Virus record (IMG/VR): IMGVR_UViG_2734482554_000005
DNA: 5,388 nucleotides
Source of the DNA: a virus
Lineage: Duplodnaviria > Heunggongvirae > Uroviricota > Caudoviricetes
Strand: one strand, 5' to 3'
In this document: positions 1,882 through 5,388 of the stretch, one piece after another
Numbering within the stretch: the stretch's first letter is position 1
How the letters are laid out: each line of letters begins with the position of its first letter
Notes under the pieces: generated by a model
Told to the model about the DNA's origin: nothing
Seen by the model: only the letters and a program-made list of their open reading frames with translations
Database searches by the model: none
Made by a program: the position numbers and the translations under genes

Positions 1882-2227
1882 AGAAGATCTCCCTCTCGCC
1901 ACGATCATGTGGCAACTGACAACCAAAGAACTCTGCGGTCAGGGCCTGCTGTGCGTGACTGACCTGGCGGTACTTGAGCGGTGGTGCGTGGCCTATGAGT
2001 TCTGGCGACGTGCCGTGAAAAATATTGCCATACAGGGCAACACCATCACCGGTGCAATGGGCGGCAGGGTCAAAAATCCGGAGCTGACCGCCAAAAAAGA
2101 ACAGGAGTCCGAGATGAGCAGCACGGGGGCAATGCTCGGACTCGACCCCAGCAGCCGCCAGCGTCTGATTGGCCTGGCGGGGCAGAAGAAAGCCACTAAC
2201 CCGTTTCTGAAAATTATCGAATCATGA
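1882..2227 (+). CDS. Terminase small subunit (P27/HK97 gp1-like), 3' portion only; 5' end lost in the gap
   Basis: Visible 115 codons (…[30 protein letters not shown]…[16 protein letters not shown]…) resemble the C-terminal part of P27-family small terminases. Stop TGA 2225-2227 overlaps the terminase large subunit ATG (ATGA). The start lies in or before the N-run; the track's GTG at 1574 is unlikely because it sits in the HNH stop region and frame continuity across the gap is unknown. Confidence 0.7.
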
Positions 2228-3957
2228 GCCGGAAATCTTACCCCAACGTAAATGCTGCAAATCAGTATGCCCGGGATGTCGTGCGCGGAAAGATTGTTGC
2301 CTGCCAGTTTGTGATTCAGGCCTGCCAGCGCCATCTTGATGACCTGATGGCGGAAAAAAGTAAGTCGTTTCGTTACCGCTTCGACAAGGACCTGGCTGAA
2401 CGGGCCGCGAAATTTATTCAGCTGTTGCCGCACACCAAGGGGGAGTGGGCATTCAAACGGATGCCCATCACGCTGGAGCCGTGGCAGCTATTTGTGATCT
2501 GCTGTGCGTTTGGCTGGGTCAATAAAGGCACCCGGTTGCGCCGCTTCCGGGAGGTGTACACCGAAATCCCCCGTAAGAACGGCAAATCAGCAATCTCTGC
2601 CGGTGTTGCCCTGTATTGTTTTGCCTGTGATAACGAGTTTGGCGCGGAAGTGTATTCCGGTGCCACGACAGAGAAACAGGCGTGGGAAGTCTTTCGCCCG
2701 GCGCGACTGATGTGTAAACGCACACCCATGCTGACGGAAGCGTTCGGGATTGAGGTTAACGCCTCAAACATGAACCGTCCGGAGGATGGCGCGCGGTTTG
2801 AACCGCTGATCGGCAACCCAGGTGATGGTTCATCACCCCACTGTGCCGTGGTTGATGAATATCACGAGCATGCCACCGATGCGCTTTATACCACAATGCT
2901 TACCGGGATGGGGGCGCGACGTCAGCCACTGATGTGGGCCATCACCACCGCCGGGTACAACATTGAGGGGCCGTGCTACGACAAGCGGCGGGAAGTCATC
3001 GAGATGCTCAACGGCTCGGTGCCTAACGATGAACTGTTCGGGATCATCTATACCGTTGATGAAGGTGACGACTGGACCGGCCCGCAGGTGCTGGAAAAAG
3101 CCAATCCAAATATTGGCGTGTCGGTTTATCGCGAATTTTTGTTAAGTCAGCAGCAGCGTGCGAAAAATAACGCCCGTCTGGCAAACGTCTTTAAAACAAA
3201 ACACCTCAATATCTGGGTGTCGGCGCGTTCGGCGTATTTCAACTTGGTGAGCTGGCAGAGCTGCGAGGATAAATCACTGACCCTTGAGCAGTTCGAGGGG
3301 CAGCCGTGCATTCTGGCCTTTGACCTGGCGCGTAAGCTGGATATGAACAGCATGGCGCGACTTTATACCCGCGAGATTGACGGTAAAACGCATTACTACA
3401 GTGTGGCCCCGCGTTTCTGGGTACCGTATGACACGGTGTACAGCGTCGAGAAAAATGAAGATCGACGGACAGCCGAACGCTTTCAGAAATGGGTGGAAAT
3501 GGGCGTTCTGACCGTTACCGATGGTGCGGAGGTGGATTATCGCTACATCCTCGAGGAGGCCAAAGCGGCGAACAAAATCAGCCCGGTCAGTGAGTCACCC
3601 ATCGACCCCTTCGGGGCGACCGGGTTGTCACATGACCTTGCTGATGAAGACCTGAATCCCGTCACTATCGTCCAGAACTTCACCAATATGTCCGATCCGA
3701 TGAAAGAGCTGGAAGCAGCGATTGAATCGGGACGTTTTCATCATGACGGCAATCCCATCATGACCTGGTGTATCGGCAACGTGGTCGGCAAAAACATGCC
3801 GGGTAACGATGATGTGGTGAAACCCGTCAAAGAGCAGGCGGAAAACAAAATCGATGGTGCAGTTGCGCTGATTATGGCGGTTGGCAGAGCCATGCTGTAC
3901 GAGAAAGAAGACACGCTGTCTGACCACATTGAGTCCTACGGGATCCGCTCGCTTTAA
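2224..3957 (+). CDS. Terminase large subunit (ATPase + nuclease), HK97-like
   Basis: 577-aa ORF. Walker A-like P-loop (EIPRKNGKS), Walker B-like hhhhDE (AVVDEYHE), and a C-terminal RNase H-like nuclease region with conserved acidic residues ([11 protein letters not shown]…[12 protein letters not shown]). ATGA-coupled to the small subunit. Position and size fit a packaging ATPase. Confidence 0.93.
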
Positions 3958-3968
3958 CTGAGGTAATT

Positions 3969-4151
3969 ATGATCATGCTGATTCTCGCGCCTCTGGTGGG
4001 CGTGCTGGGTGCGCTTTTGCTGGCGTATGGTGCCTGGCTGATTTATCCCCCGGCGGGTTTTGTTGTTGCCGGGGCGCTGTGCCTGTTCTGGTCGTGGCTG
4101 GTGGCGCGATATCTCGACCGTACACGGCAGTCTGTCGGCGGAGGTAAATAG
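3969..4151 (+). CDS. Hypothetical small membrane protein (60 aa, two predicted TM helices), function unknown
   Basis: SD GAGGT (3960-3964) just upstream of ATG 3969, with a second in-frame ATG at 3975. Almost entirely hydrophobic ([49 protein letters not shown]) with a short basic tail ([11 protein letters not shown]). Stop TAG 4149-4151 overlaps the presumed portal GTG by 1 nt. No family recognised, so this could be a real small protein or a chance ORF. Confidence 0.5.
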
Positions 4152-5307
4152 TGTTCTTTTCGGGATTATTTCAACGAAAAAGCGATGTGCCGGTGACCAC
4201 GCCAGCAGAACTGCTGATGCTATCGGGCTGTCATACGACACCTATACCGGAAAGCGGATCAGTAGCCAGCGGGCCATGCGCCTGACGGCGGTCTATTCTT
4301 GCGTCAGGGTGCTGGCAGAGTCTGTTGGTATGCTGCCCTGCAGTCTCTACAAAATCAGCGGTACCCTGAAAACACGGGCGGTGGATGAACGACTGCATAA
4401 GTTGGTTTCGGCAAAACCTAATGGCTACATGACACCGCAGGAATTCTGGGAGCTGGTTATTGTCTGCCTGTGTCTACGGGGGAATTTTTACGCCTACAAG
4501 GTAAAGGCACTGGGAGAAGTGGTGGAGCTTCTTCCGATAGATCCGGGCTGTGTGGAACCGAAGCTGAACAGCCAGTGGCAGCCGGTTTATCAGGTGACGT
4601 TTCCGGATGGTTCCGTGGATGTGTTGACCCAGAATGAAATCTGGCATGTGCGCACCCTGACGCTGGATGGACTTGTCGGGCTGAATCCCATTGCGTATGC
4701 GCGTGAGGCCATTTCACTGGCAGCGGCAACCGAGGAGCACGGTGCCAGGTTGTTTAGTAATGGTGCGGTGACATCCGGTGTGTTGCGTACGGAACAAAAG
4801 CTCACGCCGGATGCTTACGAGCGTCTGAAGAAAGATTTTGAGGAGTGTCACACGGGGCTTGGCAATGCTCACCGCCCGATGATTCTGGAAATGGGGCTGG
4901 ACTGGAAGTCGATGGCGCTGAACGCCGAGGACAGTCAGTTCCTGGAAACCCGCAAGTTTCAGCTGGAAGAAATCTGTCGTCTGTTCCGGGTGCCGTTGCA
5001 CATGGTGCAGAACACCGATCGCGCCACCTTCAACAATATCGAAGAGCTGGGGCTGGGATTTATCAACTATTCACTGGTGCCGTATCTGACCCGCATCGAA
5101 CAGCGGATCAACACCGGACTGGTACGAAAAAGTAAGCAGGGCGTTTATTACGCCAAATTTAACGCCGGGGCGTTACTGCGCGGGGATATGAAGTCCCGTT
5201 TTGAAGCCTACGCCACCGGGATCAACTGGGGAATTTACTCTTCCAATGACTGCCGCGACCTGGAAGATATGAATCCGCGTCCCGGTGGTGTAATGCCGAT
5301 CAGTTAA
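4151..5307 (+). CDS. Portal protein (HK97-family), apparently frameshifted near the 5' end in this sequence
   Basis: The body of the protein (from ~4270 to stop TAA 5305-5307; …AMRLTAVYSCVRVLAESVGMLP…NPIAYAREAISLAAATEEHGARLF…) looks like an HK97-type portal. The likely true start is GTG 4151 with a strong SD GGAGGT (4140-4145, 5-nt spacer), encoding MFFSGLFQRKSDVPVTTPAELLMLSG…, which resembles HK97-type portal N-termini as I recall them. That frame hits TGA at 4283-4285, and the rest of the gene is in another frame. The track's 4060 start lies inside the upstream ORF and its first ~70 residues are not portal-like. Confidence 0.8.
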
Positions 5308-5339
5308 GGATCAGTTGACCGATCCAGTGGCTGTGTAAG

Positions 5340-5374
5340 AATCCGGAAACGCTCACTTGTTTCCGGATTTTTTT
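5340..5374 (+). terminator. Rho-independent terminator (11-bp stem, 8-nt loop, T-tract)
   Basis: AATCCGGAAAC (5340-5350), loop GCTCACTT, GTTTCCGGATT (5359-5369) is a perfect inverted repeat, followed by TTTTT (5370-5374). Orientation fits termination of + strand transcripts; the reverse strand lacks a matching U-tract. Confidence 0.75.
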
Positions 5375-5388
5375 ATGCACATTGGACA

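Follow-up and report, generated by a model that had tools for sequence, protein, structure and literature searches.

Membrane proteins have been tied to portal-initiated head assembly in phage T4, where the portal initiator gp20 is membrane-bound in a gp40-dependent manner and crosslinks to YidC, gp40 being an inner-membrane phage factor linked to this route of prohead assembly (PMC9958956). A second small inner-membrane phage protein, the YebO-like gp15 of HK97, which is the archetypal moron and acts in superinfection exclusion, is encoded among the tail genes, has its own promoter and terminator and an atypical GC content, is expressed from the prophage, and has homologues that are mostly non-phage enterobacterial proteins (PMC3594210). 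The present analysis concerns ymfR, a 60-codon gene at positions 3969 to 4151 of a 5,388-nucleotide (nt) stretch of DNA from a tailed phage (Caudoviricetes; IMG/VR record IMGVR_UViG_2734482554_000005), hereafter the window, by which the whole stretch is meant. The gene lies between those for the terminase large subunit (terL) and an HK97-family portal protein. In lambda the corresponding position is held by gpW, a soluble head-completion protein. For HK97-type assembly we know of no membrane step. We find that ymfR is almost certainly a real protein-coding late gene under purifying selection, that its product is a 60-amino-acid (aa) helical hairpin with two transmembrane (TM) segments from a large family of small phage proteins, and that it is inherited with the portal gene beside it. 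The features of the locus on which the argument draws are listed here; dN/dS denotes the ratio of nonsynonymous to synonymous substitution and ORF an open reading frame.

2224 to 3957, plus strand: terminase large subunit gene (terL), TAA stop at 3955-3957 (Pfam TerL_ATPase and TerL_nuclease; PHROG 9)
3960 to 3963, plus strand: GAGG Shine-Dalgarno sequence of ymfR, 5 nt before the ATG (from the sequence)
3969 to 4151, plus strand: ymfR, ATG to TAG, 60 codons, encoding a 60-aa two-transmembrane hairpin protein of PHROG 502 (from the ORF, the RefSeq position, the profile and dN/dS)
3972 to 4043, plus strand: transmembrane helix 1, codons 2-25, with conserved G11, G14, G21 and W23 (AlphaFold2, hydropathy, family frequencies)
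4044 to 4058, plus strand: Y-P-P-A-G tight turn, codons 26-30, the best-conserved motif in the family (the model breaks the helix at residue 26)
4059 to 4109, plus strand: transmembrane helix 2, codons 31-47, with invariant G35, ending at R47 (hydropathy, AlphaFold2, family frequencies)
4110 to 4148, plus strand: basic, poorly constrained C-terminal tail, codons 48-60, the last of which encode the portal Shine-Dalgarno sequence
4140 to 4145, plus strand: GGAGGT Shine-Dalgarno sequence of the portal gene, within the 3′ end of ymfR (from the sequence; kept in enterobacterial loci)

The distance from the terL stop to the portal start is 193 nt. The ymfR TAG (4149-4151) and the portal GTG (4151-4153) have G4151 in common, and this GTG is the portal start used by RefSeq in intact homologues (in locus L001, ymfR occupies 5129-5311 and the portal gene 5311-6552). 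The Shine-Dalgarno context of ymfR, ctgaggtaattATG, recurs in homologous loci. An earlier reading of the same DNA (the original prediction) had described a very hydrophobic 60-codon ORF with its own Shine-Dalgarno sequence and a stop overlapping the portal start, and these particulars are confirmed.

The same reading had left the ORF unassigned, a description that no longer holds: it is ymfR, an already named and widely annotated prophage gene, with entries in PHROG 502 and IPR020297 and a RefSeq name at the same position. A 601-nt query across the ORF matches 1,611 records in 1,600 of 5,426 complete Escherichia coli genomes, and the annotation beneath these matches runs from 'terminase large subunit' through 'ymfR: protein YmfR' to 'phage portal protein'. 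The counterpart in E. coli K-12 MG1655 is b1150 of the cryptic prophage e14, whose product is called 'IPR020297 domain-containing protein YmfR' and whose neighbours are the terminase remnant ymfN/aaaE on one side and the portal remnant beeE on the other. The two copies are identical at 180 of 183 nt and 58 of 60 aa, and nothing essential differs between the loci, except that both neighbours are truncated in e14, whereas in the window terL is intact and the portal gene is frameshifted and cut by IS4. The window protein is also 97% identical to RefSeq YmfR proteins, and its residues 1-55 match PHROG 502 ('membrane protein') with E=2.8e-28. Among cultured phages, homologues occur in phiP27, ST64B (where the match lies beneath sb3/sb4), SfI, SfII and SfIV.

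Scans of YmfR against Pfam, NCBIfam and PADLOC gave no significant match, and the original prediction was right that the sequence by itself assigns the ORF no function. Hydrophobic matches to TctB, DUF2244 and DUF1206, all below threshold, were regarded as compositional. A Foldseek search with the AlphaFold2 model returned no match in the PDB and, in BFVD, only uncharacterised phage proteins, none at E≤0.001; this search is uninformative because a 60-aa hairpin holds too little fold information. Some phage records (H34, H40, H46 and H47) call the YmfR homologue 'head-tail joining protein W'. These labels are almost certainly mistaken and carried over from lambda on grounds of position, W lying between A and B there. 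YmfR and gpW share the genomic slot between large terminase and portal, but gpW is soluble and YmfR a hydrophobic membrane hairpin; the four weak sub-threshold matches in the Pfam scan of YmfR did not include gpW. We suggest the annotation YmfR-family membrane protein in place of hypothetical protein, moron or gpW.

Selection at the codon level supports translation of the frame. Pairwise Nei-Gojobori comparisons between diverged loci gave dN/dS of 0.23-0.34 in the ymfR frame; the two alternative frames gave 0.65-1.03 and 1.2-2.4. The reading frame is kept in 17 of 18 genomic loci taken from a one-genome-per-species collection. Variable columns fall on the three codon positions as 28/20/42 over the whole gene. 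The corresponding counts are 17/11/31 in the membrane core and 11/9/11 in the last 13 codons, which indicates constraint on the core and next to none on the tail, save for the GG codons doubling as the portal Shine-Dalgarno sequence; the dN/dS of this 13-aa tail is near 1. Enterobacterial homologues (58-97% identity) are almost always 60 aa long and have 15 invariant positions in common (M1, L6, P8, G11, G14, L18, G21, W23, Y26, G30, G35, C38, L39, W41 and S42). An RNA element in place of a gene was ruled out, since the selection acts on codons and an Rfam scan of the whole window found no family. In the prophage of Shigella flexneri SFBU0723 (L011, 3001-3216), ymfR is frameshifted and would yield an aberrant product of 71 aa, while the flanking terL and portal genes keep full-length protein homology to those of the window (98.6% and 91% identity).

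The product was expected to be a small integral membrane protein, and both hydropathy and structure prediction bear this out. YmfR has a grand average of hydropathy (GRAVY) of 1.155 and carries no charged residue in aa 1-46, after which R47, D50, R51, R53 and K60 follow; the ORF holds the top two hydrophobic 60-aa windows among 225 sampled in all six frames. AlphaFold2, run with an alignment of 116 sequences, places helices at residues 2-25 and 27-57 with a mean predicted local distance difference test (pLDDT) score of 88.8. Members from beyond the enterics mostly carry an Asp immediately ahead of helix 1 and, at the N-terminus, a basic extension. By the positive-inside rule, applied to the basic C-terminal tail and to these basic extensions, both ends of YmfR are predicted to be cytoplasmic and the Y-x-P-A-G turn periplasmic. 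Natural tandem fusions of two PHROG 502 hairpins were observed twice (L116, 64-399, 111 aa; L114, 1500-1808, 102 aa), one of them directly upstream of a portal gene with a 1-nt overlap and the other in a head module beside an S78 prohead protease, without a recognisable portal. An AlphaFold2 model of a tandem double hairpin (P0185), made for the packing of the two hairpins, was of low confidence (pLDDT 64, 4 sequences) and was not used.

The family is broad. A profile built from 31 enterobacterial sequences and run at E≤0.001 against 1.84 billion representative proteins found 413 clusters at 50% identity, nearly all of 45-100 aa, while 166 clusters at 90% identity are nearly all about 60 aa long; a second profile search reached 1,996 clusters at 90% identity. 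All 116 sampled members match PHROG 502, and none has a convincing Pfam match. The family core reads G14-x6-G21-A-W-L-I-Y-x-P28-A-G30-F-I-V-x-G35, with family-wide frequencies of 97% for G14, 99% for G21, 84% for W23, 84% for P28, 90% for G30 and 100% for G35. Sources include Escherichia, Salmonella, Citrobacter, Klebsiella, Enterobacter, Yersinia, Hafnia, Serratia and Mangrovibacter, together with Alcaligenaceae, Burkholderiales, Sphingomonadales and Azospirillum phage Cd; more distant relatives in PHROG 7105/502 occur in Ralstonia and Vibrio phages, and 559 contigs of a viral-contig collection encode a YmfR relative. A tblastn search of a phage collection with a divergent family member recovered Azospirillum phage Cd only, this method being insensitive for short hydrophobic queries through low-complexity masking. 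E. coli-type copies (94-97% protein identity) were also seen in a contig of a Bacillota metagenome-assembled genome (L003), in Edwardsiella hoshinae (L005) and in the 1,764-bp record of Enterococcus phage Efm 3-10 (H33). Such copies in unrelated hosts likely reflect contamination or mis-binning or, for Edwardsiella, very recent transfer.

Across this range, the gene keeps its place at the portal. The order terL-ymfR-portal was found in all 18 genomic loci, always with a stop/start overlap (TAGTG, TAATG or TGATG). In the viral collection the ymfR stop overlaps the start of the next gene in 78 of 79 analysable loci, by 1 nt in 68 and by a 4-nt ATGA in 10. The downstream gene matches Pfam Phage_portal (HK97-type, PF04860) in 55 of 55 non-redundant cases, with mutual identities of 25-35%, and the upstream gene is TerL in 41 of 45. 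Terminases are exchanged while ymfR stays beside the portal, as in Serratia loci whose terL and portal are 35% and 77% identical to those of the window, and in the pairs L052/L060, L054/L057 and L087/L099. Over 33 loci, YmfR distance follows portal distance when terL is controlled for (partial Spearman 0.32, permutation p 0.0005) and barely follows terL distance when the portal is controlled for (0.09, p 0.05). We conclude with very high confidence that ymfR, which in phages of Gamma-, Beta- and Alphaproteobacteria lies directly ahead of an HK97-type portal gene, is inherited with that portal and not with the terminase.

The gene was present in all relatives whose portals are at least 73% identical. 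In a neighbour-joining tree of 59 portals, a single deep clade takes in 40 of the 47 YmfR-linked portals and none of the 12 YmfR-less ones, and three small YmfR-positive lineages lie outside it; as a rough tree without support values, it is suggestive of an old association of ymfR and portal with some loss or transfer. Most YmfR-linked portals (L020-L099) start with M-x-G-L-F-G-x-L-A, and those of enterics with MFFSGLF. This N-terminal motif was considered as a membrane handle of the portal and dropped, similar motifs being found in some YmfR-less portals.

HK97-type modules at large had been expected to carry no gene between large terminase and portal, and for many of them this is correct. 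Portal homologues occur in 2,066 phage records, and we surveyed the junction in 14 phages whose portals are 24-39% identical to that of the window. In eight of these, namely HK97, Streptococcus Javan499, Pseudomonas PstS-pAN, Xanthomonas NP1, Vibrio Marilyn, Rhizobium RHph_TM3_3_14B, Vibrio 1270 and Bacillus Fah, terL is followed directly by the portal gene, and the two genes of HK97 overlap by 1 nt. In Vibrio K315 and Ralstonia YO156_1, a two-TM ORF overlaps the portal start. In Campylobacter phage CJIE4-1, a mazF toxin gene (L107, 217-651) stands in the terL-portal slot, which shows that the same slot can host a true accessory insertion.

For the function of YmfR we tentatively favour, as one possibility among several, a late self-associating inner-membrane hairpin that acts in a portal-linked step, analogous to T4 gp40. 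During lytic growth its translation would immediately precede that of the portal on a shared mRNA, and the protein would enter the inner membrane with its N- and C-termini facing the cytoplasm. YmfR may then associate with itself through the glycine-rich faces of its helices, a possibility raised both by the invariant glycines distributed over the two helices and by the natural tandem double-hairpin proteins, and would serve the portal-linked step most likely as a membrane site for the portal ring or the prohead initiation complex. A more specific version, in which the dodecameric HK97-type portal would dock or nucleate on a membrane-embedded YmfR oligomer, is prompted by the genomic linkage and seems to us doubtful. 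The functional model differs from the YmfR phages in that the T4 portal belongs to a different family, and T4 gene 40 is not known to lie next to gene 20.

Several observations weigh against a portal-linked membrane role. Pfam and PHROG scans of YmfR revealed no homology to T4 gp40. Physical overlap of the genes could by itself explain the co-inheritance of ymfR and portal, and stop/start overlaps are common in phage late operons, the terL/portal junction of HK97 with its single shared nucleotide being an example. The parts of YmfR exposed to the cytoplasm are tiny and poorly conserved (only Met1 at the N-terminus, and the 13-aa tail), unlike a specific interface with a soluble portal. Conservation in the membrane and in the periplasmic turn would be no less expected of a protein that self-assembles or perturbs the membrane. 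Finally, many HK97-type portals, that of HK97 included, are encoded without ymfR, so that the gene is not generally needed for this portal type.

Class II holins are small proteins with two TM helices and an N-in/C-in topology, and a holin-like permeabiliser or modulator of lysis timing, in which the late hairpin would affect depolarisation or holin triggering, is the alternative that these traits bring to mind. YmfR resembles the pinholin S21, encoded at 11-226 of the window, in its size, its two TM helices, the N-in/C-in topology predicted for it, its basic C-terminal tail and its late expression. Further features that recall class II holins are the variability of this tail and the confinement of conservation to glycine-rich TM helices. 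On the other side, the window already has a full lysis cassette (S21-type holin, lysozyme and Rz/Rz1), and YmfR lies outside it, lacks a conserved dual-start motif and has not been reported to be lethal. Alignment with hhalign against the S21 holin of the window gave a probability of 0.7%, no holin was matched in Pfam or PHROG, and two carriers compared, the window and L001, both have ymfR beside the portal but have different lysis cassettes. An overexpression screen offers a weak point in favour: the ASKA ymfR clone gave a D-alanine halo in the first round, as did others among the 65 of 392 clones that behaved alike (PMC10299036). The clone was viable at 0.1 mM isopropyl β-D-thiogalactopyranoside and was not retained after that round, and the authors noted that halos may reflect lysis or leakage, the latter caused by membrane-protein overexpression (PMC10299036). 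Taken with this evidence, a holin-like role is unlikely. A lead from Neisseria, the 'holin' NGO0488, was set aside as unrelated and located elsewhere in its own prophage.

The original prediction had proposed a moron-type accessory gene, for example one acting on the membrane or in superinfection exclusion. Morons are recognised by their own promoter and terminator, an atypical GC content, presence in one phage but not in its relatives, and expression from the repressed prophage (PMC3594210). At this locus a consensus scan, the only method applied, detected nothing resembling a promoter in 3600-4500, and it gave no terminator in the interval from terL to the portal gene. The GC content over the ORF, 0.57-0.59 against 0.50-0.57 in the flanks, is ordinary, its T-over-A skew is as hydrophobic codons would give, and the gene is present in every close relative. 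In e14, ymfR rose by 4.5 log2 units together with other e14 genes under the SOS-inducing compound LP-600 (PMC10012262); with this joint SOS-type induction it behaves like a gene repressed in the lysogen. The moron idea is thus not upheld, and we regard it as very nearly certain that ymfR is a late-operon gene and neither autonomous nor a classical moron. The PHROG category of the family, 'moron, auxiliary metabolic gene and host takeover', appears to stem from the label 'membrane protein' and not from experiment.

YmfR is a genuine membrane protein, as the original prediction had it, but neither a membrane-acting nor an exclusion role has gained specific support. An exclusion protein would stop incoming phage genomes at the membrane, like HK97 gp15, which is likewise a small inner-membrane protein encoded within a virion-structure operon (PMC3594210). 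The PHROG category also speaks for it, as does the intact state of ymfR in two defective prophages, e14 and the window, while neighbouring genes decay. YmfR differs from gp15, however, in lacking its testable moron features and in being phage-specific and widespread across Proteobacteria, and no sequence similarity between the two was detected in the Pfam and PADLOC scans. Further against exclusion, PADLOC returned no family at E≤1, no named Pfam family was matched, and the e14 copy is induced with other e14 genes under SOS-type stress. The survival of ymfR beside a broken portal may be chance, which is conceivable for a gene of 183 nt, and the reverse case is seen in S. flexneri, whose copy is frameshifted. 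An exclusion or DNA-entry block is, on balance, rather improbable.

It is harder still to credit a mainly translational-coupling leader, in which ribosomes finishing ymfR would re-initiate on the portal and set its low expression, the peptide itself having little function. The near-universal stop/start overlap fits this idea, as do the junction sequences of several high-GC homologues, which have no obvious Shine-Dalgarno sequence before the portal start. Against it stand the purifying selection on amino acids and the motif kept across 413 clusters (G14, G21, W23, P28, G30 and G35); moreover, HK97 and others couple the portal directly to terL, and enterobacterial portals have a strong GGAGG of their own. 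Another idea is a pilot or ejection protein that would travel in the virion close to the portal and help DNA to cross the inner membrane; the position beside the portal and the membrane-inserting character are all that suggests it. We consider it very improbable, since the absence of charge in the first 46 residues would favour co-translational insertion into the membrane of the producer cell, there is no soluble domain for incorporation into the capsid, and no supporting virion proteomics was found in the literature searched. A chance ORF or non-coding spacer, which the original prediction had left open, is excluded for practical purposes by dN/dS, constant length, a motif that over 400 clusters share, conserved gene order at hundreds of loci and the lack of an Rfam match anywhere in the window. 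The rest of the probability we assign to functions not considered here.

Published data on ymfR are sparse. Replacement of the gene in MG1655 had no reported phenotype (PMC9145139). The literature searched mentions ymfR solely in gene lists, e14 deletions, an expression table and an overexpression screen and as a neutral integration site, and no functional study of the gene was found in it.

The rest of the window has the following features.

11 to 1184: lysis cassette, with a P21-type holin S (11-226), a phage lysozyme (226-723), Rz (708-1184) and, embedded in Rz, an Rz1-like lipoprotein ORF (940-1122)
1227 to 1577: HNH endonuclease gene, immediately upstream of the small terminase gene (Pfam HNH, 1.6e-16)
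1574 to 2227: small-terminase gene, annotated in a close relative as 'terminase small subunit P27 family'
4151 to 5290, plus strand: HK97-family portal pseudogene, GTG start at 4151, 3′ end cut near 5285-5290 (Pfam Phage_portal, 3.3e-107 in the shifted frame)
5291 to 5388, no strand assigned: IS4 element end truncating the portal gene, 100% identical to IS4 copies in many E. coli contexts

The hydrophobic N-terminus of the lysozyme resembles a signal-anchor-release domain. An HNH gene beside the small terminase gene is the arrangement of HK97-like cos phages; a run of 266 N at 1616-1881 makes the small-terminase gene unreadable in the window. In the portal gene, comparison with the intact homologue in L001 by blastn and tblastn revealed a 1-nt deletion between 4213 and 4214 that puts the sequence beyond codon 21 out of frame, and the IS4 end replaces the last ~33 codons. 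With its portal broken, the window represents a defective prophage in which ymfR is still intact.

The YmfR family is thus far broader than Enterobacterales, and its constant property is to be joined to an HK97-type portal gene and inherited with that portal; neither point was found stated in the literature searched. This linkage fits poorly with the database label 'moron' and with the occasional 'gpW'. If the more specific version, with the portal docking or nucleating on a YmfR oligomer, were true, a large clade of proteobacterial phages would, like T4, start its proheads at the membrane, and YmfR would be the first membrane protein with a part in building an HK97-type capsid.

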